A stretch of DNA of 63,791 nt, counting the filler, from Folioceros fuciformis (lineage: Eukaryota), in assembly GCA_049999805.1 (NCBI GenBank). It is 8 parts of 8 records of this genome, joined end to end, with 100 filler letters (N's around TTAATTAATTAA, not from the genome) between each part and the next. Parts side by side here need not be neighbours in the genome. Positions count along the whole stretch, not along the records: positions 18,770 to 37,373 come from JBNGIO010005765.1; 7 more parts are not named here. One strand, given 5' to 3'. Made by a program: the position numbers and the translations under genes. The notes beneath the pieces are model-generated. The model searched no databases. It was not told the DNA's origin and saw only the letters and a list, made by a program, of their open reading frames with translations. This document shows, piece by piece, positions 13,601 through 44,676 of the stretch. The first letter of the stretch is position 1. Each line of letters opens with the position of its first letter.

Positions 13601-14330
13601 TGTGGAATGCGGGTTTTTGGCAAGTACCCGCAATAGGTAGGGAGCGGCTAATAACATTTTTAGTTTTGTTTGGTTTTAGTTTAGTAGGTTAGATGAGTGG
13701 CGATAATAAGGGGTAGTATTATAAAGAAGTTACCTTCTTTGGGATGGCTACCTATAGGGAGGTATGCCCACGTAGGGAGGATATCTCTGTGGGAGGTAGT
13801 ACCCAAATAAGAAATATAGTTGTGAAGGGCAAGCTACCTACAGAAAAGGGACACCTATGTAGGGTATCTATTAAGGGCAGTTACTACATATAGAAGTATA
13901 CCTACAACAAGAGGGTATTTAAAGGGGTCCCTACCTAAGGTGTCCCATCAATGAAGGGTGCTCACCTCCACGTAGGGAACTACATCTACCTACATAGCGG
14001 GGAATAAGGAAGTAGTTGTGCGACAAGACACCTACGCCGGGGACCTACTTGTTGTGGCCAAGCGGACTCAAAGAGAGAAAAAGGGCTTTGCTATGGTGAG
14101 AGCCATAGGGAGAAACGGTGCAAGGGACGTGAAATCAGCTGCACAGAAGCTGGGAGCAGTTGCCTACGGAGGTAGGGGTATAACCTTGCGTAAAGGAGGG
14201 TGACCGACATTCTTGGGGTTTTGTTCCATCAACTATGGCGCAGACCTCCAACAATACTCAGGTGGGTTTCGGTAGTAGGGGACGACCCACGAGGGCAGCC
14301 AACTCTCCCCGAATGTGAAAATTGTGCAAA
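13601..14330 (+). mobile_element. Unclassified LTR-like insertion beginning TGTGGAATG
   Basis: Abrupt loss of copia homology at 13601, a TG start and non-coding content. The right end is uncertain. Confidence 0.35.
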
Positions 14331-14336
14331 AACGAT

Positions 14337-16710
14337 TGTTGCCAAAACTGAATGAATAAAATAATCAATACAAAATGTTTACAAAACATGTGTTTAAATA
14401 TTCATGACTTGGAGTCATGTTGTTTCACTTTAACTAAACATAATTAATCTAAATTAAATACATACAACCCTAAGTGTGACAGGGCTTGTTATCTTAACAC
14501 TCCCTCTCAAGCTTCACGCTTAGGTAACAACTGGTCTAAAGCAATCTCCACAGAAATGAAGCAAGGCAAATAGTCCACCAACGGGCAATGATTCTCCACA
14601 CATGAGGCGTCCCCCACTTTGTGGTAGAAAACACATGTGCTGGCGGCGTAGCAGCAGTAGTTTTGAAATTGAAGAAAGCTCATAAAGAAAAATGGAGATA
14701 AATAACTCACAACTGGTTGTCTACTTGTGGCTTCATCTACTAAGTCGTTCGCTCCCTCTGTAGGTCTAATCCTACACTATGTGTCATTCACATAAGCTGA
14801 GTAATCACCCAGCCCTAAGCCATCCATATGCTTATAGTGTTTTGGCTTAGAAAGTGCTTTGGTTAGAATGTCGGCCACATTGTCATTTGTTCCAACATAA
14901 CTAACCTTCGTTACCCCTGTATCCACGGCATCCCTGATGTAATGATGGAATATCTCTATATGCTTGGTGTGTGCATGGAATCGAGGGTTAGCGACCAGGG
15001 CAAGCGCTGACATGTTGTCACAAAGTATGGGGGTAGGGTTCTGTTGTGTCTGCCCCAATTCTTGTAAAAACCTCCTCTCCCATTCAGCCTCCTTGGTGGC
15101 TTCAGTGAGAGATTTATACTCTGCCTCTGTTGAAGAAAAAGATATAGAGGGTTGCTTCTTGCAACTCCAATTAATGGCAGCTCCTACAAGAAGAAAGCAA
15201 TATGTGGAGAGGCCGCGACGGGAGTCAGCATCAGATGCCCAATCGGCATCTGTAAAACCTTGTAGAATGAGTTTAGCCTTGCCACTACGCTTGTATATGA
15301 GCCCATGTGTCATTGTGCCTTTTAAGTATCTGAAGATACGCTTGACGGCAACCCAATGAGCCCTACCAGGGTGCTCTAAGAACTGCGACACTGTACTAAC
15401 TGCATACTAGATGTCAGGTTAGGTCCAGTTCGCCACAAAAATGAGACTTCCGACTGCGTGTCTATATGGAACATCTTGCATATCCAACTACTCCTCTAGG
15501 GTTTGCGCACATTGAAGACTAGTGAGCTTCACACCCATAGCAGCTGGGGCTGGTCGTGCCTCGTCCATATGAAACTTAGTCAAAATTTCCTTGATGTACT
15601 TGTTTTGATGTATGGCCATCACCCCATCAGCTCTCACCAACTGGATCCCTAAACAAAACTTCAAGTCACCAATATCCTTCATTTCAAATTTGTTGGATAA
15701 AAGCTGCTTGACATGTTCTAAAAGGGTCTTGTCATTTGTGGCTAATATTACGTCATCAACATATAAAGCCAAAATGAAGTATGAGGAGCCTTGGGTAAGC
15801 ATATATATATTGGAATCAGCAGTACTTTGTACAAAGTTAGTTTCCAATAAGTAAACATGCATGGTAAAGTACCATACTCTACCAGATTGCTTGAGGCCAT
15901 AAATACATTTGAGAAGTAATAAAACTTTGTTGGGGTATTTAGAATCAACATACCTCTCAGGTTGTTGCATATAAAGTTCCTCCTCAAGCTTGCTGTACAA
16001 ATACGCTGTGCAAACATCCATTTGATGCAGATACAAATCATGTTTTGTTGCCATAGCAAGTAACATCCTAATGGATTGAGATCTAACCACAGGACTGAAT
16101 GTCTCTTGATAATCTAGGCCTTCAACCTGCGTGAATCCCCTAGCCACGAGTCTGGATTTGTAACGTGCAATCTCTCCCTTGGAGTTGAGTTTGTGCTTGA
16201 AAACCCACTTGCACGAGATGGGTTTCCTACCAGGTGGCAAATCCACTAACTTCCATGTATTATTCTTGATCAAGGACTGATACTCATCCTCAACTGATAT
16301 ACGCCACTTGTCATCCTCAGGGCCAGACAAGGCTTGCTTCAAGTTGATTGGCTCATCAGGGATGACAGTAGCGAGTGATGTGAAAGTGTTGCGGAAATTT
16401 ATAGACTCATAGGGGGGCTCGATCCACTCGGCTCTAGGTAGTCTATGGCGGGTGGATCTACGCAACTCGGGCTCTGGTGGAACTTCTACAACTTGTGGCG
16501 GCATGACATCTGGCTCTAAAACAGGTTCATGGTCATCCTGAAGAGGGTCAGGAACTGCATCTTCCATGAAAGGTTCAGGGTGATGTGCAAGGTTGTTCTC
16601 CACAGCTGGTGCATTTAGGTGTTCATGTGCCAGCTCATCTACGGGTGCATGGGCAGGCTGTGTTGAGATGTCACCCCCGCCATGCTCAAAGGAGGTTAAA
16701 ACAAGTTAGT
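14337..16710 (-). mobile_element. Ty1/copia 3' half (INT-RT linker, RT, RNase H, PPT, short 3' LTR about 14337-14499)
   Basis: ORFs 15488-16603 (YVDD) and 14777-15391 (TDADWA, EAEY, DILTK). PPT TTGAGAGGGAG followed by TGTTAAG at 14499. Confidence 0.9.
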
Positions 16711-18669
16711 TGAAGCAAGATGCAGAATCCCAAAACTAAGAGCACTATAACAAGGCTCTTAAACTAAAATAAAAAGGAGAATTACAAAAACAACACAATA
16801 CAAGTGAAGAGGGAGTTAGACTGCATCTACTAAGTGGGTTCATCCCTTCTTTTATGGACCTATGGGTGGCACTCTCATTTAGTGCCCAATATGGGATAAA
16901 TGACCCCAACCAAACCCTACAATACTTCTTTTGCCCAACATAGCAAAGTCTAATAAGCTATATATATATATTAATCATAACCTTAATCACTCTTACCACT
17001 AATTAGTACAAACTCAATAAGCTGGATTAGCACTAATTAATATCAACATTAATCATGCTTAACACTCCCACTCAGCGCACTTGAGTTTGCTTCAGTCCAA
17101 GTAGTCCCCTGCATTTCTCAAACTTGAACTTACTCACTGCCTTGGTTAAGAAATCTGCAGCCATTTCCTCAGTGTTGCAATATTCAAAGGTAACCTCCAA
17201 TAACTTCACCTTCTCACGTACAAAGTGATGTTGAATGTCAATATGCTTTGTCCTTGCATGATGCACTGGATTCTTGATCAAGGCCATACTTCCTTGACTA
17301 TCGCTCCTAAGAGTGGTCGGATGCAATTGTTCATAACCAATCTCCTCCATGAGCTTTCTCAACCATACGGCCTCCTTGGTGGCTTGTGTGGATGCCATGT
17401 ACTCAGCTTCAACTGTCGATATGGCCACCGTGGGTTGCTTCTTACTATTCCAGGTAATGGCACCTCCTCCTAAAATAAAAGTATATCCTGTAGTTGATCT
17501 TCTATCATCAAGATCACTTCCCCAATCGGAGTCACAATACCCAATAATATTATGGCATTTGATTCCACCCGAGAATTCCAACCACATATCACTTGTACCT
17601 CTCAAGTATCGCATGATCCTTTTCACCGCAATCCAATGTTGCTTTCCAGGGCTTTGCATAAATTGGCTCACTACTCCCACTGCCTTTGCAATGTCTGGAC
17701 GTGTTCCTACCATGGCATACATCAAACTTCCAACTGCTGCCCTATATGGGATGTTACTCATCTCATGCTCCTCCCCATCATTTGATGAGTAGTCAACCTT
17801 ACACAACTTCACACCTAAGTCTTGAGGGGTCCCAATAGGCTTGCAATCCATCATTCCAAATCGCTCCAATAATCCCTCAACATACCCTTGCTGACCAAGC
17901 CTGATGATACGTGCTGCCCTATCTCTCCGCACTTCAATTCCAAGACAATAGTTGATGTTCCCTAAGTCCTTCATTTCAAACTTCTTTGACAACATCTCCT
18001 TCACTTTATCAATACTGCTTAAAGATGGACTCAACAAGATAAGATCATCCACATATATGGCTAAGATTACCTTACTTTGGGAGACCTCAAAAATGTAGAT
18101 GCTCTCATCTGATGTGCATTGCCGAAAACCCTGCTCCAAAAGATATGAGTTAATCTTTTGATACCAAGCTCTCGGAGCCTGCTTCAATCCATAAAGAGCT
18201 TTCTTCAATTTGCAAACCATGTGCTCCTTGCCCATAACTACATAGCCTTGGGGTTGCTCCATGTAAATGTCTTCCTCCAAGTCCCCATTTAGAAATGTTG
18301 TTTTCACATCCATTTGATGAATCTCCAAATCATACATTGCTCCCACTGCAAGTAAGGTTCTGATGGATGCAAACTTGGCAACTGGTGCAAATGTCTCATT
18401 GTAGTCAATGCCCTCCTCTTGGGAGTATCCCTTCACCACCAACCTAGCCTTGAATCTATCAATTTCCCCACTTGCATTTCTCTTGATTCTAAACACCCAC
18501 TTACACCCAATGGCATTCCTTCCTGCGGGCAATGTTGTCAACATCCACGTATCATTACCTTCAAGGGACCTCATCTCCTCATCCATGGCTTCTTTCCAGT
18601 GCTCGCAATCCTTCCCTTGTAGAGCTTCAGCCACAGTCAATGGTTCCCTTCCGTGTGTCATAGCAATGG
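16711..18669 (-). mobile_element. Ty1/copia RT-RNase H with 3' LTR (about 16711-17064), apparently nested in the previous element
   Basis: Uninterrupted 529-aa ORF 17072-18661 (QMDVKTTFLNG, YVDD, CDSDWG, DFLTK). PPT GAGTGGGAG followed by TGTTAAG at 17064. Confidence 0.92.
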
Positions 18670-18769
18670 NNNNNNNNNNNNNNNNNNNNNNNNNNNNNNN
18701 NNNNNNNNNNNNNTTAATTAATTAANNNNNNNNNNNNNNNNNNNNNNNNNNNNNNNNNNNNNNNNNNNN

Positions 18770-19786
18770 CCTCCTCTAACAATGCTGCAAGAGCCATGTT
18801 TGTATCTCGAGGTCGAGGACGACGTACCACTAGTGGCCCTCGTCCACCTTACAAGCCGACTGGTTCTCGCCCAACATGGCCAGCCTCGAAGTCTAACACT
18901 TCAAAGAGGGGCCCCTGCACCTGGTGCAGAATTCCTGGCCATACAGAAGCTGAATGCCGTAAGAAACAAAACGGCGAACCTAAAAGAGAGGCTCCACCTT
19001 CAGCTCATGTATCCTCAAAGAAAAGTTCGGGTGCCATGCTTCCAGTATGCATGGTTTCCTCGTCCCAAGATAGACATGCTTGGTATCTAGACTCAGGTGC
19101 CACAACACATGTCTGTAATACACGTACAGCATTCACCACGTTGATACCTTCTCCTAAGGGACGGTTTGTCCTTCTAGGTGATGACAGTGGTCTATGCATT
19201 GAGGGCATGGGTACAGTGGTCCTCCATCTTGCACATGGTCAACAAATTACGTTGTCAAATGTTATCTATGTGCCACAGATGGCAAAGAACTTGGTGTCTC
19301 TTAGGCGTCTGTCTCCTCCCGGAAAATCTTTTCTGCTCCCAAGTGGCGACACAGACTAGCAGCCCAAGCAGGAGCAGCAGGATAAAGCTGCCGTCCAAGT
19401 GCGAAATTCCGCCAACACTCAGCATAGCTACAACTCGATCTGCAGACGGAGAGTATGCGCAAGTTGAGAGACGGCACGGATTACGGCGCATGTGAGGTTC
19501 ACGACGGCGGGATTACAGTCTAAGTGGGGGTAGCGAGATAGGTTGCCCTTAACTAGCCCGTATCCCGGCGTCATGCATAGTTTAGGTCGTTAAGCGAATA
19601 GTTACACATATATATATATTTATTATATAAGTGCACGAACAGGTGCACAGTCGTAACGTTAATAGTCAACCGCCGTACCGGTTCACATGACACGGCCTCT
19701 TATGGCCTTACACCCACATTCACAAGTGGCTATTCTGATTTTCTAAGCTTTCTCTCTACGCCGTGTGCTACCGATCCTACGCTACA
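18770..19786 (+). mobile_element. Internally deleted copia (gag knuckle and protease joined to 3' region, PPT and LTR)
   Basis: CTWCRIPGHTEAEC and WYLDSGAT in ORF 18796-19359. PPT-like AAGTGGGGG at about 19522. The LTR-like stretch ends ...GCTACA at 19786. Confidence 0.75.
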
Positions 19787-22772
19787 TTTGGTAAGGATGG
19801 AATGGCAAAACCAGGATTAACTGGAGTCGGAACAGGGCCTCCAGGTGGGGCCTAAACCTGTGGGTTGACAACCGGCAAGGGGACATCGTGTTCCATATCA
19901 TCCAAGGGATAATTACTACTGTCTAGATATGATTATGTAGAATCAGCATCTTGAGAGATATGAGGGAAGCTGTAGGTGCCTTCATTATTCACATTCAAAG
20001 ATGGAGGTGCTGGCTCAATAAACTTCACACTTCTGGTAAGTGTCATGGATCTAGTTTTTGTGTTAACCAACTTATATGCTTTTGCAATTTCACTGTACCC
20101 AACGAAGAGTAGCTTCAGTGAACGGGAATCAAGCTTTTTTCTTTTATCAGCTAGGATATATGCATAGGCTCGAGATCCGAAAACCTTCAAATGTAGTAAG
20201 CTAGGCTTGCAGGACAAGAACACCTCATAAGGAGTCTTGTGCGGGACAGAGCTAGTCAACACCCTATTCAAGATGTATGTCGCTGTGACAATAGCCCTTG
20301 CCCAATAACCGTGAGGTAATCCGGCCCAAATGAGCATGCTTCGGATCATTGCTAGCAAAGTTTGGTTCTTACGTTCTGACACGCCATTTTGCTGTGGTGT
20401 GTAGGGAATAGTGAGTTGGAGAAGGATCCCATGCTCTTGCAACAAGTCATCAAAAGCCTGGTTCATGAATTCCGTCCCGTTATCTGTTCTGAGCACTTTC
20501 AGCAGCATTCCAAACTGCCTCTGCATAGTGGTCAACCAATCCTTGAAGTAGGAAAATCTGTCGATCTTCAACTGCATAAGGAATGTGCAGGTATATCTAC
20601 TGTAATCATCTATCAATGTAAAGAAGTATTGAGAACCTCCCAATGAGGGTTTTTGGATATTTCTAGATATGTCAGCGTGTACTAAGCCAAGCACTTGTGT
20701 TGCCATGTGTGTAGGTGCATTAGGAAATGGAGATTCTTTTTATTTCGCTAGAATGCAAGACTCGCACACAGGTAAATGCTTAAAGCACTTTGGAAGTGGT
20801 TCACGATGACATTCTATAATTGACATATCTATCAGCTTAGAACAATTGATGTGCCCTAGTAGGGCATGCTACAAAATGGCTTCTTGCTGGGAGCTAAGTG
20901 ACTTAGCTTCTGCTGAATGGGCAACATGTTTGGCAGATTGTTTTTGATAGGTAATGTCTAACCTATACAGATCATTCTCTAAAATAAATTTGAAAATGCA
21001 TATGTTAGGGAACTGCTTTCTGTAGAAGCAACACGTGTTAAAATCTGCAAGCATGTGGAAGGTACGTAAACGCATGACCTGACTCATGGACATAAGGTTT
21101 TTGGCCATGCCTGGGAGGAAGAGAACATCTTCTAACACGAGAGGTGTGTGATCATGAAGCATGAACACACATGTACCTCGACCTTCTATCTGCAGACTTG
21201 TCTTTGATTGCTCATCACCAAGAAGCACCTTGTCATCAACATGAACAAGGTTGAGGGAAGTGAACAACACCCTATCTCTGCAAATGTGAGTTGTGGCGCC
21301 AGAATCGATGTACCAGTAGCCTTCGTCTTGCAGAGAACTTGACAAGCAGATGGTAAGGATCCTCACACATGCCTTGGAGTCACTTGTCTTGTCCTTGACT
21401 GCCACGTTTGCAGCAGGTTTTGGTTGCTTCTTGGGCTCACTTGCCTTCTTCTTTTGGCATTCTCTTGCCCAACGGCCAGGAGTCTTACACCAATTACAAG
21501 AACCTAGCTGCTTAGTGTTTGAGGATTCTCCCTTCTATTGCTTGGAAGTGTTGTTTCCCCCTCTGAATTTGTTCTGTCCTTTAGAAGAACGAAAATTCAT
21601 ACCTAACACCTTCTCGGCTTTGCTCTTAGGAACACCAACAGAGAATGCATAGCTCTGCTCCTCCTGGAACAAGGCACCAATCATCTCTTCAAGGGTGATG
21701 GCGACAGGTTGCCCAGCAGTAGCAGCTGTGTGTGTAGTACGAATCAGTCCGTTTTGGCTTGTAACAAAAGGTTGATAGGAGACAAGGAGACTGGTTAGTA
21801 GCTGGGCCACAGCGTCCACTTCAGACATCTTGTTGCCAATCAGGGACGCCAACTGTGCCCGCAGATGTCAAAATCTACTAGTATGAGTTGCCACCTTATC
21901 GCCTTCCTTCATTTTAAGTGCGTAGATCTCCTACCTTATAGCGCAGAGAGTCATCGTGTTCTGTACTTGATATTTCTTTTCAAGTTGTGTCCAGATTTCA
22001 GCCGCAGCAGTGAAGAACTCGACTTCAGGAACGAGATCAGCATCCAATCCTCTGATGAGTAGGGCCATGGCTATTGTAGGGTTATTAAAGCCCAATGTGC
22101 CTAGACTAATGTGTTTAGTCTAAGATTAGTGTCTAGTTAAGTATCATTAGTTTAAATTAGCTTAAGCTAATCTCAAGGAAGCTTCTTGTTCAGCTTCCTG
22201 TGGGCTTCTTGTGAAGCTTCCTAGGGAGCTCTTCTAGAGGGTATAAATACCCACTTGAGCTCTCTTGTATGTGTGACTCTATTGTGAGAGTGTGACCTCT
22301 CTTTCTCCTCTCCTCCTTGCCTCCTCCTCTCCTCTCCTCCTTGCCTCCTCNNNNNNNNNNCTTGCCTCCTCCTCTCCTCTCCTCCTTGCCTCCTCCTCTC
22401 CTCTCCTTCACCATGTAGCTCCTAGAGCGTTCCTTCAGCTATGCCATTAAGCAAGTCCCATTTGGCAATCTCATCAGCCGAGGGTGCTGGGGTAGCATTG
22501 GGGTCTGGTTTCTTGGAGGTGCCATCCACGACAGGATAGACACCACGTGCTATCAACATGCTTTTCATGTAAACTCTCCAAATCGAGTATCCCTCTCCCT
22601 TGAACCTATCCTTCTCTTTAAGTTCTGAGGTAAAGGATGGGGTGCTTACAGCTGCTGCCATTGGAATAGGTGAAGGCTGAGTTGTTTGAACAACTTGGTT
22701 TAGACTAAGCTGTTGAAAGGTATTTATTAATGTGTTCAATTGTGCTAACAGGGATGCAGTGGACATGAACAC
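19787..22772 (-). mobile_element. Degenerate Ty1/copia gag-PR-INT
   Basis: Gag KEKDRFKGEGYSIW (22422-22772), protease WYIDSGAT (20869-21405), integrase RTDNGTEF/PQQNGVSER (19933-20706). Confidence 0.9.
22075..22437 (+). mobile_element. Solo LTR of copia family B with 5-bp TSD GCTAT, inserted in the gag of the host copia
   Basis: TG...CA ends. GCTAT at 22070-22074 and 22438-22442. Matches the LTRs at 59997 and 61512, and the host gag reads across the site. Confidence 0.92.
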
Positions 22773-25490: not shown

Positions 25491-25656
25491 TGTACAATCT
25501 TTAGATCATGGCTGCACCAGTAGTAAGTTCATCATGTCAATTCGTCATTTCATATCATAACCCAGAACCTTGGGAAAGGACGGAGGTGTACACCTTTGAG
25601 AGTGCAAAGTTTAGCACACAATAAAGGGTCACTGGCTAATTCTCCACTGGTTGTTC

Positions 25657-28584
25657 TCATGGTCGACCTTTGCAAGTGCAATAACCAGCTGCAAACCGAT
25701 GCACACGGTACCCATCCCTCACAACAATGTCTCTGTTTTCAACTCTGGACATGATCTCGGTGGAAGTGTGGCAGTCACTGCACATGCGGAGGTTCTTCGT
25801 GACCAGCAAAGGTGTGCCACTCGGAGTGTTCAACAAACCAAACGCCAGGGCCAGTTTCTCAGCATGCCCACAGAGCGCATCTTCCTTCTCCTTCTCAGAC
25901 ACTGGCTTCAACACCAACTTGGTGTGCGGTACGTGGCCCCCTTCCTGCTTCAGTCGTGCATTCATGCTCTCCACCTTCACTGCAATATCATCTCTGTTTT
26001 CTCCCACCACAAATGTATGTACCTCCCTCTTCACCTCAATCGTCACCACTGCAGGTTTCTTGTTAGCTCCTGCTCCCACCCGCTGCGTCTCGATTCTATC
26101 TGCATCGGCCCACCTACCTGCGTCTGCGAAGGTGTTGGCCATGAGCACATATGCGGATGCATGCTGCGGCTCCAGTCTCACCAGACTTTCGAAACAGCGC
26201 GTTGCCCTCTCTATATCCCCGTGACTTTTGCAAGCATTCAGCAAAGACGTCAACCCCACAACGTTGTGTTGGCCCTCACATGACAGTAGCATGTTCTCAG
26301 CCTCATCCAAATGGCCTGCGCGCCCAAGAAGGTCGATCATGCAAGTGAAATGCTCCACAGTGGGTTTGATGCCATGCTGTTCAACCATGGAATCGAAGTG
26401 CATGCGGCCCTCGTCCACAAGTCCCTCGTGACTGCATGCCGCCAGAAGGCAAGTGAAAGTAGCTTCATCAGGCTGGATACCAGAGGCTAGCATCTCCTCG
26501 AAATAAGCTACTGCCTTCTGGCCATCATCACAAGCACCACACCCGGCTATCAGGGCCGTCCATGTCACCACATCCTTCGTGGCCATGCCGTCAAAAACCC
26601 GGCGCGCATTTTCCAGTTCGCCGCATTTTGCATACATGTCCACCAGGCAGTTGCCCAGCACTACGTTGTTCAGCTGCCCTCTTTCCACAATCTGTGAGTG
26701 CAGCTGAGTGCCCGTCTGTAAGGCACCCACGTTTGCACATGCCTTCAGAAGGCAAGCAAAAGTAACGTCGGTAGTCAAAATCGGGCTCTCCTGCTCCATC
26801 TGTGCGTACAGATCTAGCGCCTCCTGGCTCAGCCCTTGATGTGCGTACCCTGCAAGCAGAGCATTCCATGTCACCACATTTTTCGAGGATAGGCTGTCAA
26901 AAACCTGCCGTGCAAGTTCCAGTTCGCCACATTTCGCATACATGTCCACCAGGCAGGTGCCCAACAACACGTTATCAAGCTGTCCACTTTTGACAATCTG
27001 TGTGTGCAGCTGCCTCCCCTTCTGCACGGCACCAGTGCTTGCACAGGCCTTCAGAAGGCAAGCAAAAGTAACCTGGTCAGCCACAACGAGGCCCTCTTGC
27101 TCCATTTGTCCATAAACAACAAGCGCCTCCTGACCAAGCCCTCGCTGCGCATAGCCAGCGATCAGGGCATTCCATGTCACCACATCCTTTCTGATCAAGC
27201 TGTCAAAAACCTGGCGAGCTTCTCGCAGTTCGCCACATTTTGCGTACATGTCCACCAAACAGTTGCCCAACACTATGTTATCCAACAGTCCTCTTTTCAC
27301 AATCTGTGAGTGCAAGTGCCTGCCCTTCTGTAAGGCACCAGTGCTTGCACAGGCCTTTAGGAGGCGAGCAAAAGTAACATGGTCAGCCACAACCAGGCCC
27401 TCTTGCTCCATTTGTCCATACACAACAAGGGCCTCTTGGCCGCGCCCATGCTTTGCATACCCAGCAATGAGTGCAGTCCATGTCACCACATCCTTGGTGT
27501 CCATCCTGTCAAAAACTTGGCGGGCACGTTCCATTTCGCCACATTTTGCGTACATGTCCACCAGGCAGTTGTCGACAAACAAGTTATCAGGAATGCCACT
27601 GCGCAACACATCACAGTGCACTTGTGTGCCAGATTCCAAGTCCACAGCAAGTGCACAAGCTTGAAGGGCAGCTACGAAGACGTGGGCATCCGCCTTCATA
27701 CCTGAGCGACGCATCTCATGGTACAGTTGTATGGCCCTGTCAGGCTGCCCATGTTTCGCATGTGCAGAGATTATGGAAAACCACATGAAGGCATCTGGTT
27801 TGCCTACCCTGGTGAACACATCCATGGCCTCCTGTAACCTACCTCCACATGCATACATTCGCAAGATATGGTTCCCCAAGTACGCATTCGACTCGTATCC
27901 ACGTTTCACCGTGAGAACATGAACTCGTTGCCCCAAAGCCAGGTCCTTCCTTGCTGTACAGAGTTTTAGCACAGTATAAAACAGAGACAGAGAAATGGGA
28001 CAATCTGTGTGCGCGAGAGATTCCAGAGCTCCAACGGCCTCACTGAGCTTCCCCTGCTGACATAACGTACTCACGATTTCCACGGTGACGACCCCCATAT
28101 CCGATCCTGCACGCCCTCCGGGTTCATGCTTATCCAAAGAGATGGAGTCAGAAGAAAAGGCACCATGACCCATCTGCATATCCAACGAGACGAGTTGCTC
28201 ATCCACCCAAGCTGGCTTCAACATGTTGTTTAACCACAGGACCTCGCTGGACCCCTTCCGCCGGAAATCAGGCCACCTGGAGCTCTTCTTATCTCGTCTG
28301 TTGTCCCACCACATGGTAGGGTCGTGAAAAAACTGTTTCCACAAGAGCTCCTGCTCCTCGCGACCACCATGGCTGGAAAGACCATCCCCACCCACACCTT
28401 CTCTGGGAAGTGGAATTGCTGGGTTCCTTGCACTACTGCAGCTGAAGGCTTGCTTGTTTCCCAGCGCTTGACTTCCTAAGGCGAGGTGAGCAGTAGCCCC
28501 TCGTACACTCCCTGTACACACACCAATTTGATGGGTCCACAACAGGTCCGGCTGCCATTCGACTGCCATCGTATCCCGGAGCAT
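25657..28584 (-). CDS. Intronless PLS-class PPR protein with E1/E2 and a DYW:KP (GRP-type) deaminase-like domain, plus N-terminal OSB-like PDF motif; candidate organellar U-to-C editing factor
   Basis: About 18 P/L/S motifs ending P2-L2-S2-E1-E2, then KKPAVVTIEV, HAEKLA, CSDCH and terminal CTCKGRP. First ATG at 28584; true start uncertain. Confidence 0.95.
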   Translation of the reverse strand: MLRDTMAVEWQPDLLWTHQIGVCTGSVRGATAHLALGSQALGNKQAFSCSSARNPAIPLPREGVGGDGLSSHGGREEQELLWKQFFHDPTMWWDNRRDKKSSRWPDFRRKGSSEVLWLNNMLKPAWVDEQLVSLDMQMGHGAFSSDSISLDKHEPGGRAGSDMGVVTVEIVSTLCQQGKLSEAVGALESLAHTDCPISLSLFYTVLKLCTARKDLALGQRVHVLTVKRGYESNAYLGNHILRMYACGGRLQEAMDVFTRVGKPDAFMWFSIISAHAKHGQPDRAIQLYHEMRRSGMKADAHVFVAALQACALAVDLESGTQVHCDVLRSGIPDNLFVDNCLVDMYAKCGEMERARQVFDRMDTKDVVTWTALIAGYAKHGRGQEALVVYGQMEQEGLVVADHVTFARLLKACASTGALQKGRHLHSQIVKRGLLDNIVLGNCLVDMYAKCGELREARQVFDSLIRKDVVTWNALIAGYAQRGLGQEALVVYGQMEQEGLVVADQVTFACLLKACASTGAVQKGRQLHTQIVKSGQLDNVLLGTCLVDMYAKCGELELARQVFDSLSSKNVVTWNALLAGYAHQGLSQEALDLYAQMEQESPILTTDVTFACLLKACANVGALQTGTQLHSQIVERGQLNNVVLGNCLVDMYAKCGELENARRVFDGMATKDVVTWTALIAGCGACDDGQKAVAYFEEMLASGIQPDEATFTCLLAACSHEGLVDEGRMHFDSMVEQHGIKPTVEHFTCMIDLLGRAGHLDEAENMLLSCEGQHNVVGLTSLLNACKSHGDIERATRCFESLVRLEPQHASAYVLMANTFADAGRWADADRIETQRVGAGANKKPAVVTIEVKREVHTFVVGENRDDIAVKVESMNARLKQEGGHVPHTKLVLKPVSEKEKEDALCGHAEKLALAFGLLNTPSGTPLLVTKNLRMCSDCHTSTEIMSRVENRDIVVRDGYRVHRFAAGYCTCKGRP

Positions 28585-29169
28585 GAGACGCACACCAAAC
28601 TATGTCATGGATTGCATGACCCCACCACCCTCAGGAAGGGCAGTGCAGCTACTTTTGGTAATAGATGGCCAAGACAACAAACCACAAGCATTCATTCCAG
28701 CGCTCGCATCAAAATACTCAGCGAATGGGAACACCAGTATCAAAAATCCATGATTCATTCCTCTCAGCCCTCTCTGATGAGGTTGTGAATGGACGTGCAG
28801 TGTAGCAGTCGTTGAGGTGAGCAGCCCGTGCTGAGCTGGCTGCAAGCTCGTTTATACTACTGAGTGGTTTCCGATGGGGTGGGGAAAAAGACGGATAGGG
28901 CAGGGTTTGGGAGCGGGAAGGGCACCTACAGAGGCTCAGCGGGGGATGCACAGTCGTCAAAGCATCTATGTAACCCATGAGTCATTCTGCTATGGAGTGT
29001 GACAAGGTGTGCCCTCAACATACCCGAACCTGGTGATGTGCGCTCCCATGCTGTCTCCAGTCGTCGTTGCGGATTCAGAATTCTTGGAAAATTCATTCTG
29101 TGCTGCGACCAAGCTCACATCCATTTCAGCCTGGTGGTAGCTACCCTTGCCTTGCTGTCAGAGAGGAGT

Positions 29170-29265
29170 AAAGGATTCCAGCCTTTGGTCTCACCCAGTC
29201 TTTGGTCTCATCCAGTCTTTGGTCTCATCCACTCGTTGGTCTCATCCAATCTTTGGTCTGATCCC
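29170..29265. repeat. About 17-bp tandem repeat CTTTGGTCTCATCCAGT (about 5 copies)
   Basis: Read directly. Confidence 0.8.
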
Positions 29266-29389
29266 ATCTTCCACCAAAACAACAATCTTACAGCATCTCA
29301 GGAACTTACAACGACAATGTACTCGAGATGTTGCAGGCTTTTGTGGTTTTGAAGACCTTGTGTTGTGTGAGTTTCACGTCAAAACAAGA

Positions 29390-29530
29390 CATGCAACAAG
29401 GATCATGAATGATATGGCTTCGAGAAGTGCAACAAGGATATGAATGATCTAGCTTTAAGAAGTGCAACAAGGATATGAATGATCTAGCTTCAAGAAGTGC
29501 AACAAGAATCATGAATGATTTTCTTCAAGA
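29390..29530. repeat. About 35-bp tandem repeat AAGTGCAACAAGGATATGAATGATCTAGCTTCAAG (about 4 copies)
   Basis: Read directly. Confidence 0.8.
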
Positions 29531-35132: not shown

Positions 35133-35357
35133 CTGCCGAGGCATGTACAGGAACAAGGGGGATAAGGATGTGTGACACGACACGACACGACACGACACTA
35201 CACCACACGAGCACATCACATCTGGCTGTGACAAACCATGAAACAACACTCCTCCTCCTCCACCACCGCCTCCTCCTCCTCCTCCTCCCATTCCTCTTTG
35301 ACCAACGCCAAACCAAGGTGAAGAGAGCAAGGACGAATGCAGGTTACAAGGCATTAC

Positions 35358-37373
35358 CTGTACAGATAGCCGTGCTCGGCTGCAATTCCCAGCCGAGGGC
35401 ATGCGGAAAACCAGGGATCCAGTTCACGTCGAGCCCGGCCACTGACGATGAACACCACATTTTTGGGGTCATTGCAGAGCGTGTTGAGCACGGCCAGCAC
35501 TTCGGGGGTGGGCTCCCTCTGCAACGAGGACTGCGGCTTCATGGTGCCATCGTAATCCAGCAGCAGCACCCTGCTCTTGCTCTTCCTGTAGGCAGCCACA
35601 ATCTGCTCCGTCAAGAGCTTGCGGAAGTTGGGGTCCAGTGCCACAACGCGGAAGCCAAGGCCGAAACCGATGCCATAACAGCGCCTGCGGGCATGGTCCT
35701 GACAAGTGCGGGAGAGATCCGCGATAAAACTACTGGCCCAGTAATCCACATCCCGGTCCTTGACGAACTTGAAGTGCTTCTCGTGCCTCATGTGCTTCTC
35801 GGGCTCGGGCATGGTGACGGCCATGTTCATGGCTTCCGCCACCGCCTCGATGTTCCACGGGTTCACCCGGATGGCTCCGCTCAGGGAAGGGGAGCAGCCG
35901 ATGAACTCCGACACGATGAGCATGCTCTTCTTGAGTTCTGCGGGGGCTCCCGGAGTGGTGGTAGCGTCCGCGGTGGAGCTGGCCGCCTCCCGGCACACAA
36001 TGTACTCGTAGGGGATGAGGTTCATGCCATCCCGGACGGCGGTCACGACGCAGCACTCCGCCACAGTGTAGAAGGCGATCCTCTCGTAGAGAGGCACATG
36101 GCGACCCAGCAGCATGACAGGTTCGTAGCCGGGGAAGCCGAAGTCGCGATTAATCCTGTCCGCAATCTGCTTCACCTCCTCCTCCAGCTCCTGCACATCC
36201 TTGCCCCTGCCACGCGCAGGGTTGGCCACCTGAACGAGGATGAGCTTGCCCTTCCACTCCGGGTGCTGTTTGAGCAGCTGCTCCATAGCCAGCAGCTTGA
36301 GGTCGATGCCCTTGAAGATGTCCATGTCGTCCACTCCCAACATGACAATCTTGCCCTGGAGCTGCGCCCGAAGCTCGCCAATGCGCCACTTGGTGTCGGG
36401 AAGGCGGAGGCGATCCTCCAGCTGTGCCATGTGTATGCCAACGGGCATGATTTTGATCCCTACAGTGCGGCCGTAGTATTCGAGGCCAATGTAGCCCCGC
36501 TTGGACTCGAATTCCAAGCCAAGCATCCGGGAGCAGCAGGAGAGGAAGTGGCGGGCGTAGTCGAAGGTGTGGAAGCCGATGAGATCGGAGTTGAGGAGAG
36601 CTCGCAGGATCTCGTCCCGCACGGGCAGGATGCGGTAGATCTCAGAGGAAGGGAAAGGGGAGTGGAGGAAGAAGCCGAGGCGGACCCGGTTGAAGCGCTT
36701 GCGCAGGAAGGTGGGTAGCACCATGAGATGGTAGTCGTGCACCCAGACGTAGTCATCATCCGGGTTGATCACCTCCATCACCTTGTCCGCAAACACCTTG
36801 TTGACCGAGACGTACGCCTGCCAGAGAGAGCGGTCGAAGCGGCCTCCGTGATCCGGCGTGAGCGGCAGCATGTAGTGGAAGAGCGGCCAGAGCTGCTGCT
36901 TGCAGAAGCCGAGGTAGAAACGCTGGCGGAGGTCGGCGTCGAAGAAGGCCGGCACGCAGTTGAAGTTGTCGAGCAGATTGGCGGCCACCTCGTCCTGCTC
37001 GCTCACCTCCACCTCCTCCTTGAGGCAGCCGATGTAGAGCACCTCCGTGTCGGCCGGCAAGCCCCGGCGCAGCTGCAACAGCAGCGAGTCCTCGTCCCAG
37101 AAGAAGGTCCATCCCAAGTTGTCCGGCCGCCGCTGCGCATGCAAGGGCAGAATGTGAGCCACGAGGATGATGCGCTCCTGCGCCACGGACGAGGCCGCCT
37201 CCGAAGTAACGCTGTTCGTGCTGGCCGCCTCATCCAGGTCGCTGGGCGTCCGCTGCTGCTGCTGCCCTGCCGGCGGCTCCGTCAGGATGCCTGCCACTGT
37301 CATAGCGCGCCGCATACTGCTTCCACCTTTTTTTTTTCCGCTACCTTGCACTCCCCTTCCGATCCCTACTCCC
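35358..37373 (-). CDS. TPS: Class II trehalose-6-phosphate synthase (GT20 plus TPP domain), exon 1; 5' end runs into the gap
   Basis: FCKQQLWPLFHY, WVHDYHL, GFFLHSPFPSSEIYR, LGVDDMDIFKGI, RDGMNLIPYEY, SEFIGCSPSLSGA, LLDYDGT. Donor CAG|GTAATG at 35357. Confidence 0.96.
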
Positions 37374-38046
37374 NNNNNNNNNNNNNNNNNNNNNNNNNNN
37401 NNNNNNNNNNNNNNNNNTTAATTAATTAANNNNNNNNNNNNNNNNNNNNNNNNNNNNNNNNNNNNNNNNNNNNGGGCAGCATGTCAGCCGCCGCCGCTTC
37501 TGGAAGACGAGAAACAAAGTAACAACGCGAGTTCCAGCAGCAGGCTTGATGGTGAGTAGAGGTTTGCAAGCCCTGATCAGATAAACATTGATCTTGAGCT
37601 TCATCCTAGACTCACGTGCTCTGTTGTGCATACAATCAATACATTTGCATTATTCTCAAGCTTCTCGTCCTATGCCCTCTGCACATTGTCAGATTCCTGC
37701 GAGGCAGTGCGGGAAACTGCAATTTTCTGTTTCGCAATCTAGATTTTGATAAGCGCAGACGCTTTACCCCGGTGGTATCATGAGTGAGAAGAAACGGAAA
37801 TTTTCTTTTAAGGCTATAGAAGCTGAGCGTGTCATATTCGAAGGCTGAATACGAGAGCCGATCCAGTTCCAACAATGTTCCACAAAACAAAATCAAGAAC
37901 GAAGCTTCCGTAAGAGTGAGCCCCAAGAAGACACCTGTTGAGGACGATTCCTCAACATTCTGAGCAGACTCACAGCTCTTCCGGACACTCCTGGTCAACG
38001 CACTTGTGACATTCCGTGACATGAACCAGAAGCTCCACATCTATCC

Positions 38047-39200
38047 TTAAACAGATGCACTCCTGGGCGCGAGGAACTTTGGAGAACTGTCCAAGGGTGA
38101 ATTGCCAGTCTCGCAACCCCGGGTCCACTCGTCAGACAAGGTGTGATAAGCGATTATCTCCCCATCCTCTTCCTTGTGAAACACAAGCATCAAAAGTGTG
38201 TCGCGAACAAACCCTACGTCCGCCACCCTAGAAGTGTACACGAATTCCTCCGGAGGGAGGGAGACAAGCGTCCACGCTGTACTGCCGTCATCCAACTTGA
38301 GAATAGTGCGTTCGGGCAGCACTGCGAACAGGGTCTCGCTGGAAGCGCTTGGAACCAAATACACATGTTTCCAAGAAACACTTGGATGGATACGCGGCAC
38401 TGTGCTAAGATATTCGGCCTTTGCACTCAAGCGCACCAGAACATACAGCTGTGAGACCCCCAAGCCCGGAAGCCTCAGCAAGGCATACATGAACCGCCGA
38501 CTTAGAAAATAGCGATACACACGAATGCCACCCGAAGCCAAGTCTGCGCCCACATCCAGTCCCACCTGATCAATCGAAGCCCGCGGAATGGCAAACCTGT
38601 TCCACGTCAGCGGCGGCACTCCGTTGGCAGAGCTGCTGGAGTAGATGTAGAAGCCGACCTCACCGAGATCCTGTGGAGTACGGTACGACACGGCAACACG
38701 GAAGCTGTTATCTCCGTCCACAACCATGGCCGGGTCACCCACACTGTCCTTCCACGGAAGGAGAGGAAGCTCCTTGGACGGGATTTCTTCCACAGGATTG
38801 AAGACGAAGACGCGCATCCTGCCCAAGCTGCAGCCGCTGCACTCGCGCACGACTAGTGCCAGCAGGCCACCTTGTGCGCACCAATTGCCGTCCTGCTTCA
38901 AATCTGACTCGTCCACATCCGCCGGGAGCATCATCTTCGCCACCTTCAAACGCGCCGCGCCTGTATCAAAGGCTTCCAGGGCACTGCACACAGCCATAGA
39001 TTTACCCGAGCGCAACGCTATTAAGGCCGTCTGATCCTGGAATTTAGAAGACAAAATGAGCTTCCACCACCGCTTGCACACAGTAGAGAAGCGAGCTTGC
39101 ACGGCGGCTGGAAGGAACAGCAGCACATTCTTCATCACAGATTCTCGAGTGAGAATCAGAATCAGAATCAGAATGTTCTCGAGTATGAACAGAACAGTGT
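38047..39200 (-). CDS. Single-exon F-box protein (5' end uncertain or possibly disrupted)
   Basis: F-box motif ESVMKNVLLFLPAAVQARFSTVCKRWWKLI followed by a typical GGLL...VFNP...ELPLLP association region, within ORF 38047-39351. Confidence 0.75.
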
Positions 39201-39259
39201 ACACAAAACGGTTCGTTCCCTGCGTGGGAAGACCTGAGATCCCCGGGTTAGAGGAATGT

Positions 39260-39880
39260 TGGCCCGACGGGTGCTGGCTATGGAAATGTTTCACTTGAGA
39301 TGCTGGTGGAGTGGTGGCAAAGGAAGTCTTGTATGCAACAGCTCTTCTCACGTCTCATCCTGCCAGCAACATTTCTACCACAACCACTCATGGTCCTCTT
39401 GTTTTGTTCAAGGTAGACAACCAATCCGCTCTCGCTCTTGCTGGCAACCCGAAGTTCAGCCCCAAGTGCAAGCACATCGATCTCCAATATCACTACATGC
39501 GCAAGAAATGTGCATCGGGAACGAGGGTCTTGAGTATTGCCCGAAAGAGCTTATCGGGGCAGACGTCTTGACCAATAGCTTGCCTCGTGTCAAACACTGA
39601 GCGTGTACAGCCCTGCTAAGGAGTCAATGGTCATCTTTATCAAGACAGTAAGCTAGCCAAACAGACTTAGCCTGAGGCGAGTATTAGAATATCAATCTAG
39701 ATGTTAGGCAAACCTCCTCCTCCCCTGAAAGTCACACCCTTTCGGGATGACAATAAGATTTGCTGTAACCAAGTGCAAATTAATCATTCTTACATTGGTT
39801 ACAAATTAATCATACTTACATTCCTTCGCACCCACTGATTTTATATTTCGTAGGCGTCAACAATTCCAGACTTGAAATGT
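39260..39880 (+). mobile_element. Degenerate copia RNase H fragment plus probable 3' LTR
   Basis: DNQSALALAGNPKFSPKCKHIDLQYHYMR; purine tract near 39673 followed by an AT-rich block. Confidence 0.7.
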
Positions 39881-43059: not shown

Positions 43060-43069
43060 NNNNNNNNNN

Positions 43070-44676
43070 ATCTGCACGGCCGTATCCCGTCCTTCGTGCC
43101 GGCTCTGGCGTACCTGGACCTGTCCCACAACAACTTGTCTGGCCCCATCCCTCCGGACTTTCGTGGCATGGCATGGCTGGATCTCTCTGGAAATGAGCTA
43201 AATGGCAGCATTCCTGCCTCTTTGCTATACGTCGAACATCTTAAGGCATATGCGGATCTCTATGTGAATCTCTCCAGAAATTCTCTGGTGGGCACCATAC
43301 CCGAGGCTCCCTTGGACAGTCTCGAGACATTCCCATTTGGTGGGCTGGACCTGAGTGACAATCAGCTGAATGGTTCTCTTCCTTCCTCCTTCAGCTCCCA
43401 CTGCTACTTCGACCTGCTGTGGCTCCAGAACAACCAGCTATCTGGTGACTTGATCGTCCTTCTCAGCAGGTCACTTCAACTTGGCAGCAGTAGTATCCGA
43501 GTCCGAGGCAACCGATTCACCGGGGACCTCCCCAACTTGCTCCAGACCCACAACATTTCCTTCGGGCCAGTTTTCGACTTGAGCCACAACAATTTCATCA
43601 TGACACCTTCCGACGACTTCTCCAATCCCTTGCAGCGCATCCTGGAGATCAGTTGTTTCCAACCTCAAGACTACTCCCCCCCGCCCCAGCTGCAGGAACT
43701 TCGGCTAGCGGGTACCGATCTCATGGGCATACCAATGCCGGACAGCCTCAATTGTACCTTTTATGGCTGGACCGGTCTGGAGTCGTTGCAGATCTTGGAT
43801 CTTGCGTCTTGCAACTTGAGTGGAACAGTGCCGGACAAGTTGCTCAATGTTTCCCTGCCCAATTTGACCTTCCTCAACTTGTCCAACAACAGATTATCTG
43901 GGCCCATTCCCCCAAGCTTACCTGTCACTCTCGCCATCTTGGATCTAAGCAACACCAATGTGGGGGGAACCATGCCGGCTGACCTTTTCACTGGTCTGCC
44001 CAGCCTGTTGCACTTCAACGCATCCCGCAGCAAGCTGAACGGCCCCATCCCAGACAGCTTCCCAATCTCTCTCCAAGTCTTGGACCTCAGCCACAACAAC
44101 CTGTCAGGACAAATACCTGCTACTTTTTTCTTTGCATTGCCTAACCTGAGGACCATCATTCTCTCTGGCAACAATCTGTCAGGACCCATACCAGATGGCC
44201 TGCGTCCGGATCTCAATGTAACCAGCTTCTTCGCCGACAATCCGGGGCTGTGCGGCGGACCTCTTCCGCCCTGCTGGAATCAACTTCCTGTAGGTGATGG
44301 CCATGGTATCAACCTGTGGGTGCTTGAGGCAGTGGTGGTTGCCTCCGTCATGGTTTGCGCGGCCAGTTGTTTGTTTTCCGTGTGGAGATGGAGAGTTTAT
44401 TCCAGAAAGCACCGGCAAGATGAGGACTTGATTGCCACATTGCTCGAGAGGGAAACGGTGACGGTGATGTCTCTTCGGGAACTCCGCAAAGCCACCTCCA
44501 ACTTCTCGGACTCGGCCCAGATCGGGGCTCGCGGCTTCGGCACAGTCTACAGGGGCGAACTCGACGATGGCACGCCAGTGGCCATCAAGAAGGGCAAGCG
44601 TGAAGGCTCCCCAGAATACAAGCACCAGTTTCTCAATGAGGTCAGGATTCTGTCGGGAGTCAGTTCTCAAGGCACA
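43070..44676 (+). pseudogene. LRR-RLK copy 2 (LRRs, TM, kinase subdomains I-III), truncated by a copia insertion
   Basis: Duplicates 41630-43059, then continues SLRELRKATSNFS...IGARGFGTVYRG...VAIKK...FLNEVRIL until homology ends at about 44665. Confidence 0.88.

Follow-up and report, generated by a model that had tools for sequence, protein, structure and literature searches.

An OSB-type PDF motif precedes the PPR array of a predicted DYW:KP (GRP) editing factor of Folioceros fuciformis

Introduction

In the usual description, a PPR editing factor consists of a targeting peptide followed by a PPR array and E/DYW domains, and fusion of a PPR tract with a further module is exemplified by the RRM-PPR protein PPR4 of maize. 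U-to-C editing in E. coli has been reported for the designer proteins KP2 and KP3 of the GRP subgroup, a subgroup known from hornworts (PMC9478123). The PDF motif is known from another group, the plant OSB proteins; that of Arabidopsis OSB1 was reported to be sufficient for binding of single-stranded DNA (ssDNA; PMC6963530; PMC6451138), and according to a review the recombinant forms of AtOSB1 and AtOSB2 bind ssDNA in preference to dsDNA or RNA (PMC4166229). Here we describe a gene of Folioceros fuciformis (assembly GCA_049999805.1) for which an earlier note had claimed that both groups of features meet in a single protein.

Results

Organization of the Gene

The gene is located on the minus strand of the window, i.e., the whole stretch of 63,791 nucleotides analysed, in the part derived from JBNGIO010005765.1. 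The frame 25657-28599(-) is unbroken over 980 codons from stop to stop and holds the PDF motif, PPR repeats, an E motif and a DYW deaminase, in agreement with the claim that the motif shares one open frame with a PLS-PPR-E-DYW protein. The coding frame proper, which does not require an intron, extends from the first in-frame ATG at 28584 to the stop codon at 25657-25659 (25657..28584, minus strand). A second in-frame ATG occurs at 28569, with A at -3 and G at +4. The earlier note had considered a translation start downstream of the motif, which would separate it from the protein, but both of these predicted starts lie upstream of it. The stretch 25657-28584(-) thus encodes one polypeptide (P0001), consisting of a presequence, the PDF motif, a linker, a PLS-type PPR array, an E motif and a DYW:KP(GRP) deaminase. 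Starting from each of seven candidate Met codons, the exact protein was absent from the protein collection searched.

The presequence (28351..28584, minus strand; ca. 78 residues) is poorly conserved, predicted to be disordered, and a putative organelle-targeting peptide; this function stays putative because its 6 R+K against 7 D+E are atypical of such peptides. It is followed by the PDF motif (28180..28350, minus strand; residues 84-140), which contains the interval 28192-28347 that had been indicated without a strand. The 52-residue core of the motif is encoded there exactly, on the minus strand; read on the plus strand, the interval yields unrelated residues, including a stop, and that reading was ruled out. 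A likewise poorly conserved and predicted disordered linker of ca. 25 residues (28102..28179, minus strand) leads to the first PPR helix.

The PPR array and the E motif occupy 25939..28101 on the minus strand, where Pfam recognizes PPR_2, PPR_1 and E_motif, with 12 PPR stretches (2.2e-85) and the E motif at residues 793-855 (26035-26223, minus strand; 2.5e-12). Within the array, a tandem repeat (26541..27589, minus strand) with a period of 306 nt, 3.4 copies and 79% matches corresponds to 102 codons per unit, i.e., one P-L-S triplet, and near-identical triplets are indeed visible in the translation. The DYW-type deaminase of the KP class, GRP subgroup, terminates the protein (25660..25938, minus strand; residues 888-978; Pfam DYW_deaminase, 2.2e-32).

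Contigs of sequencing runs were also compared with the locus; a search for runs recorded as RNA gave none for this gene. Run X1 contains exact pieces matching 27807-28247 and 28295-28700, which is not independent support since X1 may be the source sample. At position 28325, within the PDF motif, another letter was found in 32, 71, 56 and 35 contigs (at least 85% alike) of four runs, which hints at many similar copies, the contigs themselves giving no copy number.

Identity of the PDF Motif

The N-terminal stretch of P0001 is a true PDF motif, as judged by homology with the motif repeated at the C-terminus of plant OSB proteins, and the resemblance suspected in the earlier note is thereby borne out. 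A phmmer search with the 83-residue N-terminal piece against 1.84e9 proteins gave 589 matches at E<=1e-3, of which 141 reach E<=1e-10 and 16 reach E<=1e-30; the 589 include a Populus nigra protein annotated as “protein OSB1, mitochondrial-like” (P0038; E 5e-21). A profile of the motif was built with P0038 as the seed from 371 motif instances, solely from the 133 listed matches without PPR repeats. This non-PPR profile aligned with residues 84-140 over positions 2-57 of 57 with a score of 65.0 bits (E 2e-22 for one target); the highest score in 1000 shuffles of the N-terminal 170 residues was 9.2 bits. The phmmer matches and the difference between these two scores exclude a chance origin of the match. 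In a six-frame scan of the whole window the profile detected a single copy, at 28180-28350(-), with 60.3 bits.

In an alignment of 53 motifs, both OSB-type and PPR-linked, columns W20, D32, R34, K37, F45 and W55 are invariant, and P27, W30, P43, D44, K48, L54, P62, W64 and V65 nearly so. All of these are present in P0001, the consensus lines of the groups agree, and the same signature set is invariant in the 23 PPR-linked motifs. The 52-residue core contains 6 W, 3 F and 10 K+R.

Pfam assigned no family to the N-terminal piece at E<=1. An SSB domain, present in 41 of the 132 non-PPR matches scanned (P0057, a further non-PPR match, was left out), was found by Pfam neither in full-length P0001 nor in its first 145 residues; P0001 is, therefore, not an OSB protein despite its PDF motif. 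Against the sequences of the PDB, phmmer returned only chance-level matches to the piece (best E 0.19), and the ESM Atlas gave no usable match. A word-index search likewise gave no match for the 83-residue piece among longer proteins, nor for residues 1-260, which reflects the limit of word sharing, as phmmer and the profile search gave hundreds of matches.

Predicted Structure and Conservation

AlphaFold2 modelled the piece alone with a pLDDT of 84.8 as a helix, three short strands and a helix. The same fold, with a core pLDDT >90, was obtained in a model of 325 residues, in which pLDDT is <50 for model residues 1-65 and 67-70 (presequence) and 141-156 (linker) and PPR helices are modelled from residue 162 (numbering from Met-6). 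The PDF motif is thus predicted with confidence to be a compact, autonomous module, flanked on either side by a disordered segment, the presequence and the linker. Foldseek revealed no clear relative of the modelled fold in the PDB (best E 3.8), and of the 48,161 chains compared with VIA-align the best had Z 4.5 and none reached Z 5. No fold is assigned to the model on this basis, and the lack of a solved match is no proof that the fold is new. A confident prediction and the lack of any clear relative among solved structures make the fold a target for structural work. Complex prediction with two PDF copies yielded a score of 0.01.

In comparison with P0140, its closest listed relative, P0001 is 57.9% identical over the PDF motif and 59.4% over the PPR-E region, and only 25.8% over the presequence and 27.3% over the linker (11 of 31 residues alignable).

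Deaminase Class

With its PPR array, E motif and a DYW deaminase containing the zinc-site motifs HxE and CxxC, P0001 has the make-up of a PLS-class PPR-E-DYW editing factor. The deaminase was classified by alignment with five canonical DYW domains and P0140, using the subgroup features described for DYW:KP proteins (PMC9478123). It has KKPAV where canonical domains have the PG box, together with HAE, NLRMC, CSDCH, Glu replacing Lys after CxDCH, and a terminal GRP. These are the features of the DYW:KP class, GRP subgroup, to which the protein is assigned from its sequence, as had been claimed before.

The idea, implicit in the earlier note, that the fusion is linked to reverse editing is not supported. 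A GRP end occurs only in P0001 and P0140 among the PDF-PPR relatives listed, whereas all 10 named relatives listed that retain a DYW domain, i.e., Sphagnum P0091 and nine from Diphasiastrum, have the canonical DYW end. An enrichment of PDF fusions among KP/GRP proteins is not supported among the matches listed, a set that has no proteome-wide denominator. Judging from these relatives, the PDF-PPR fusion is not specific to reverse editing.

Occurrence of PDF-PPR Proteins

The fusion had also been considered as a possible singleton, but it recurs in many paralogues and in moss, lycophyte and fern lineages. PDF-PPR proteins were encountered in Sphagnum compactum, Selaginella moellendorffii, Diphasiastrum complanatum (47 protein clusters among the matches listed), Ceratopteris richardii, Adiantum capillus-veneris and in transcriptome ORFs of Pteridium aquilinum. 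PPR proteins account for 9 of the 10 long phmmer matches with an N-terminal motif and for at least 18 of the 150 phmmer matches listed (17 and P0144). In the profile search, 49 of the 120 entries listed have PPR Pfam domains; they contain one (7 proteins), two (35) or three (7) PDF copies, and in 48 of these 49 all copies precede the first PPR. No PDF-PPR protein of a seed plant was present among the entries listed. The gene is, therefore, a member of a large PDF-PPR family, recognized by sequence in mosses, lycophytes, ferns and this genome, which comprises canonical DYW proteins as well as proteins that have no DYW domain at the end of the sequence listed.

On a tree of the motifs the PPR-linked copies group together, with three label changes. 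A tree constrained to a single origin had a better likelihood (p-AU 0.619), so that the motif sequences are compatible with a single origin of the PPR-linked copies. The fern group and this genome have a K-P-x-W-V-D variant in common. No report of a PDF-PPR architecture was found in the literature searched, and the main text of a survey of PPR proteins does not mention OSB, PDF or single-stranded (PMC13386178).

Discussion

Possible Function of the PDF Module

Since the N-terminus of an RNA-bound PPR tract points to the 5' end of the RNA, one or more flexibly tethered PDF modules at the N-terminus would meet single-stranded RNA immediately 5' of the PPR footprint. We tentatively propose that the PDF motif is an auxiliary module that binds single-stranded RNA 5' of this footprint, and that it is a general accessory of editing factors and not a device specific for U-to-C editing; we give this reading a probability of roughly 0.45. 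The module would keep the activity of OSB proteins, i.e., sequence-independent binding of single-stranded nucleic acids through its conserved aromatic and basic residues, and the upstream contact would either raise affinity or keep the site open, with the C-terminal deaminase at work farther downstream. In favour of this reading are the homology with the OSB motif and the ssDNA binding reported for the latter, the retained signature residues, the conservation of the PDF relative to its flanks, the recurrence of the fusion and the autonomous fold predicted for the module. Against it, no clear solved fold relative of the modelled PDF is available to support a nucleic-acid-binding mode, and the 78-residue presequence with its 7 acidic residues is atypical of a targeting peptide.

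The ssDNA preference of AtOSB1 and AtOSB2 also counts against it and favours another reading, in which the PDF motif tethers the protein to the nucleoid by binding ssDNA exposed in transcription bubbles, in R-loops or in intermediates of replication and recombination, leading to co-transcriptional editing. The earlier note had raised tethering to nucleoids or R-loops, co-transcriptional editing and action on ssDNA, all of which are speculation. Arabidopsis OSB2 has been reported from the plastid transcriptionally active chromosome, the residues of the ssDNA-binding signature are fully kept in the PPR-linked copies, and their 1-3 tandem copies resemble the repeat arrangement of OSBs. In OSBs the PDF motif is the ssDNA-binding element, and OSB1 and OSB2 are reported to favour ssDNA over RNA (PMC6963530, PMC4166229, PMC6451138). 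However, the remainder of the protein acts on RNA and a generic tether has no obvious need for a place 5' of each PPR tract, and we consider this explanation rather unlikely. Small helix-strand-helix modules are often interaction domains, and the PDF motif could, without contacting nucleic acids, oligomerize or recruit OSB proteins, parts of the editosome or a polymerase. AtOSB2 is indeed reported to be a tetramer (PMC6963530) and OSBs to modulate RecA reactions in a pathway-specific manner (bioRxiv 10.64898/2026.10.24.761589). Such a role is unlikely, since the conserved set is composed of exposed-type aromatic and basic residues typical of nucleic-acid binders, none of our results points to a partner, and the motif alone is reported to suffice for ssDNA binding (PMC6963530).

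The massive, duplication-driven expansion of PPR proteins reported for these lineages (PMC13386178) and the compatibility of the PPR-linked motifs with a single origin (three label changes, p-AU 0.619) would also fit a functionless OSB-derived exon, captured once by a PPR gene and copied along with a retroposing family. Such an inert passenger would not be expected to keep its invariant residues across moss, lycophyte, fern and this genome, to be as conserved as the PPR region while its flanks decayed to 26-27% identity, or to be raised to two or three copies in many genes, which makes this very unlikely. It is even harder to believe that the motif lies outside the protein, either through a downstream start at Met141 or Met143 or as a chance or annotation artefact. 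The start codon is, admittedly, predicted from sequence and the exact protein is absent from the collection with all seven Met starts tried. However, the frame opens at 28599 and has two ATGs before the motif is reached, and a start at Met141 would leave only ca. 25 residues before the first PPR helix, without room for a targeting peptide. The 57.9% protein identity of the PDF, against 26-27% in its flanks, and the same arrangement in continuous Pteridium transcript ORFs and dozens of gene models argue for translation of the motif, and chance is excluded by the phmmer, profile and shuffle results.

In a more ambitious and improbable scenario, the RNA editing factors of land-plant organelles have, since ancient times, had in the PDF motif a helper within their own chain. 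An OSB-derived PDF exon would have been joined early, and once, to a PLS-PPR gene, supplying an intrinsic single-strand clamp; as the PPR family of hornworts, mosses, lycophytes and ferns expanded, the clamp would have been carried along and multiplied. By coupling to nascent RNA or to ssDNA exposed at the nucleoid, it would allow co-transcriptional editing and would do in cis what MORF/RIP, ORRM and OZ proteins do in seed plants. If this were true, such enzymes could, as a bolder corollary, also reach single-stranded DNA.

The presence of 1-3 OSB ssDNA-binding motifs in dozens of PLS-PPR genes of non-seed plants joins two subjects that have hitherto been treated apart, i.e., organelle genome maintenance and RNA editing. 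Surveys of domain fusions rest on Pfam-type libraries, and the Pfam search performed here gave no match for the N-terminal piece. The lineages concerned are not known to have MORF-type helpers, and the fusion bears on the mechanism of their editing factors. It is likewise relevant to synthetic PPR editors, in the design of which an added single-strand-binding module could matter.

Comparison with Known Systems

The PDF motifs of Arabidopsis OSB1-4 are the closest known counterparts of the motif described here. They are modules of ca. 55 residues with W, D, R, K, P-D-F, L-W and P-x-W-V at the same positions, and PDF-PPR proteins share with the OSBs the occurrence of 1-3 tandem copies. In the OSBs, however, the motif is C-terminal and follows an SSB-like OB-fold, whereas in P0001 it is N-terminal, precedes the PPR array and is not accompanied by an SSB domain. 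The PPR-linked copies, moreover, cluster on the motif tree, and those of the fern group and of this genome share K-P-x-W-V-D. With the DYW:KP factors of the GRP subgroup (PMC9478123) P0001 shares KP in place of the PG box, HAE, Met before CxDCH, Glu for Lys after CxDCH and the C-terminal GRP; the available text on these factors does not describe an N-terminal accessory domain (PMC9478123), whereas P0001 has a PDF motif before its PPR array. The RRM-PPR fusions counted across the Archaeplastida (PMC13386178) are similar in that a sequence-specific PPR tract and a small module for general binding of single-stranded nucleic acids are combined in one chain, the added module being an RRM in those proteins and a PDF motif in P0001.

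Gene Structure and Genomic Setting

The 52 residues in which the earlier note recognized a PDF motif, i.e., the ~50-residue ssDNA-binding motif of plant OSB proteins, are encoded exactly at 28192-28347, but only on the minus strand; the plus-strand reading of this interval gives unrelated residues with a stop inside. They correspond to residues 85-136 of P0001, the 980-codon stop-to-stop frame at 25657-28599 (minus strand), in which Pfam identifies PPR repeats (12 stretches, 2.2e-85), an E motif (residues 793-855, 2.5e-12), and a DYW deaminase domain (residues 888-978, 2.2e-32). The PDF motif and the PPR-E-DYW part are, as had been claimed, held in one open reading frame and, since the gene can be read without an intron, no gene-model error produced the fusion here. 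In-frame ATG codons occur upstream of the motif at 28584 (residue 6) and 28569 (residue 11; A at -3, G at +4), both on the minus strand, and the next Met codons lie within the motif or past it. The PPR array contains a tandem repeat with a 306-nt period, equal to one P-L-S triplet (3.4 copies, 79% matches).

An 83-codon open frame (28600-28851, minus strand), unlike a targeting peptide, adjoins the PPR gene upstream in the same frame, with a lone stop (28600-28602) between the two. Two short tandem repeats (29177-29264 and 29385-29500), one with a 17-nt unit (5.2 copies) and the other with a 35-nt unit (3.3 copies), lie 600-900 nt upstream of the gene start. The setting is a retroelement-rich stretch of plant nuclear genome, with Ty1/copia-type gag, integrase, and reverse-transcriptase sequences in long ORFs, several of them broken, at 1572-5733, 8233-10224, and 14777-21534 (minus strand) and at 11176-13640, 52900-54504, and 62188-63789 (plus strand). 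By eye, a trehalose-phosphate-synthase-like ORF (35354-37417, minus strand), an F-box-like ORF (38047-39354, minus strand), and two adjacent, alike LRR receptor-kinase-like ORFs (41274-43010 and 42874-44679, plus strand) were also recognized. The window contains 636 Ns.

Identity of the PDF Motif

With phmmer, an 83-residue piece (28150-28398, minus strand) was compared to 1.84 billion representative proteins. Of the 589 matches at E<=1e-3, 141 reached E<=1e-10 and 16 reached E<=1e-30; the top 150 of the 589 were listed. P0038, a “protein OSB1, mitochondrial-like” of Populus nigra, matched with E 5e-21 in two stretches near its C-terminus. With the motif of this protein as seed, a PDF profile was built from 371 instances in non-PPR proteins only (57 match positions); it matched residues 84-140 of P0001 over model positions 2-57 with 65.0 bits (single-target E 2e-22), whereas none of 1000 shuffles of the N-terminal 170 residues exceeded 9.2 bits. 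Scanned in all six frames, the whole window yielded a single copy (28180-28350, minus strand). Pfam gave no family match in the N-terminal 145 residues, which indicates that the Pfam copy searched lacks a model matching the PDF stretch. The window protein keeps every invariant column (W, D, R, K, F, W) of a 53-motif alignment, and every nearly invariant one as well (P, W, P-D, K, L, P, W-V). Because of these phmmer and profile matches and the presence of all conserved columns, homology to the OSB PDF motif is secure, and the feature recognized upstream of the PPR array is a real one.

An SSB domain (Pfam, E<=1e-3) is present in 41 of 132 non-PPR proteins among the best 150 phmmer matches (132 of the 133 listed, P0057 being omitted for its size), and an iterated search from one SSB-like domain seed marked 73 of 152 proteins. 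P0057, a 1526-aa protein of Coptis chinensis, combines three PDF motifs with an annotated kinesin motor domain and may be a merged gene model.

Recurrence and Origin of the PDF-PPR Fusion

Nine of the ten long phmmer matches with an N-terminal PDF motif are PPR proteins according to Pfam, two of these nine with DYW domains. In total, at least 18 of the best 150 matches contain PPR repeats (17 plus P0144); among the 132 others, Pfam identified PPR repeats in 2. Several short matches resemble N-terminal fragments of PDF-PPR proteins. The fusion is not a singleton but recurs in a moss (Sphagnum compactum P0091, ending in DYW), in lycophytes (Diphasiastrum complanatum P0135/P0168 and P0118; Selaginella moellendorffii P0101), and in ferns (Ceratopteris richardii P0126/P0167 and P0131; Adiantum capillus-veneris P0052 and P0087; Pteridium aquilinum P0093 and P0151, two transcriptome ORFs). 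These proteins are labeled “hypothetical protein” or generic PPR in the databases.

A second profile, made from 23 PPR-linked motifs and run against longer proteins (7995 candidates scored), gave 524 matches at E<=1e-6. Many of the rows listed bear the names OSB1, OSB2, or OSB3, and 49 of the 120 listed have PPR Pfam domains (47 come from Diphasiastrum complanatum, as clusters at 90% identity, and one from Adiantum). These 49 carry one (7), two (35), or three (7) PDF copies, and in 48 cases every copy precedes the first PPR; in the exception, P0183, a second copy lies mid-protein, and this looks like two merged gene models. A DYW domain occurs in nine of the 49. Over 25617-28424 of the window, thousands of contigs from sequencing runs of four organisms (X1, X2, X5, and X19; 3681-19935 per run) align at 85-95% over the PPR, DYW, and PDF parts, consistent with very large families of mutually similar PPR genes in these organisms.

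A FastTree phylogeny covering 379 motif instances requires 12 label changes for the 24 PPR-linked motifs, compared to 22-24 in the ten shuffles shown of 200 run; many of their “other” neighbors are probably PDF-PPR fragments. They fall in two adjacent groups, one comprising ferns and the window genome (K-P-x-W-V-D) and one comprising moss and lycophyte. When these 24 were analyzed with 60 motifs drawn randomly from 179 SSB-linked ones, the free tree had three changes, and with the PPR-linked motifs constrained to a single clade the log-likelihood was 7.14 higher (p-AU 0.619). The motif sequences are thus compatible with a single origin but do not prove it, since the alignment has only 54 columns and the group was defined after the first tree had been seen.

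Deaminase Class

An alignment of the P0001 C-terminus with canonical Sphagnum and Diphasiastrum DYW domains showed that P0001 and P0140, its closest relative listed (ending in GGRP), depart from them at five positions: the PG box (K-K-P-A-V instead of K-x-P-G-x-S/T-W-I-E-V), the active site (HAE instead of HSE, or HSV in one row), the residues before CxDCH (NLRMC instead of NLR-V/I-C, or NLWVC in one row), the position after CxDCH (Glu instead of a conserved Lys), and the C-terminus (GRP instead of DYW). All five are features listed for DYW:KP domains and their GRP subgroup in sections of PMC9478123, where hornworts are given as the source of this subgroup and U-to-C editing in E. coli by designer GRP proteins is reported at about 22-26%. 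The match supports the earlier designation of P0001 as a DYW:GRP enzyme and hints, short of proof, at a hornwort origin of the window.

Constraint and Possible Role of the PDF Module

Identity between P0001 and P0140 is 25.8% in the presequence, 57.9% in the PDF motif, 27.3% in the linker (11 of 31 residues alignable), 59.4% in the PPR-E region, and 73.7% in the DYW domain; conservation of the PDF motif is thus on the level of the functional domains, whereas its flanks have drifted. That it is an inert passenger is very improbable. The motif follows the first Met by 78 residues in P0001 and by 79 in P0140, with similar spacing in other relatives. Were translation to begin at Met141, no space for a targeting peptide would remain. 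A PDF motif that is not translated seems barely conceivable. Of the 78 residues of the putative presequence, 7 are acidic, a weak point of this reading.

An AlphaFold2 model of the PDF piece with 53 aligned motifs (mean pLDDT 84.8, pTM 0.69) shows two helices with three short strands between them. In a longer model (325 residues, from Met6), residues 1-65, 67-70 (pLDDT <50), and 141-156 are disordered, and the PDF module and the PPR helices from residue 162 have pLDDT >90. Because the confident fold sits between disordered segments, the predicted module resembles an independent domain held by a flexible tether. Foldseek against the PDB (best E 3.8) and VIA-align against 48,161 representative chains (best Z 4.5, none at Z >=5) assign no known fold to the model, which is no proof of a new fold.

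PPR tracts lie N-to-C along the RNA in its 5'-to-3' direction, and the DYW domain acts immediately 3' of their footprint. A tethered N-terminal PDF module would, for this reason, contact the strand on the 5' side of the recognition site. If it retains OSB activity, it would be a sequence-independent single-strand binder. The architecture, its homology, its constraint, and its recurrence are demonstrated; as to the mode of action, we tentatively prefer an auxiliary RNA clamp that would raise affinity or keep the site single-stranded (probability roughly 0.45). The main rival is the ssDNA or nucleoid tether proposed in the earlier note, for which it speaks that OSB1 and OSB2 are reported, in part of PMC4166229, to prefer ssDNA over RNA; we consider it unlikely. 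A role of the module in protein interaction is less likely still. Whatever the role of the module, it is general and independent of U-to-C chemistry, since canonical DYW proteins and proteins whose sequence, as listed, ends without a DYW domain also carry the motif; the special tie to reverse editing implied in the earlier note is not supported, as all nine DYW-bearing rows listed end in GDYW.

Comparison with Known Systems

No description of a PDF-PPR fusion was found in the main texts of papers searchable in full; papers retrieved on related terms deal, among other subjects, with DNA metabolism or with PPR localization in Arabidopsis. The PDF-motif text of a review of mtDNA replication proteins (PMC6963530) is without such a fusion, and the terms “OSB,” “PDF,” and “single-stranded” are absent from the main text of a kingdom-wide survey from 2026 on domain fusions in editing factors (PMC13386178). 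PDF-PPR proteins thus form an apparently unreported, broad architecture in non-seed land plants, of which the window gene is one member.

In passages of PMC6963530, PMC4166229, and PMC6451138, the motif is described as ~50 residues long, placed after the OB-like domain of OSBs in one to several copies, and, in AtOSB1, sufficient for ssDNA binding. Arabidopsis OSBs are described with one to four copies, far fewer than the 9-13 tandem motifs in each of P0002, P0003, P0004, P0008, and P0011 among the best 150 phmmer matches; one of these, a 1160-residue protein of Kingdonia uniflora, carries 13 and matches SSB weakly. P0001 and P0140 share all five features of the DYW:KP GRP subgroup as described in part of PMC9478123. 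Both the PDF motif and this editing-enzyme family are thus known; it is their combination that is new.
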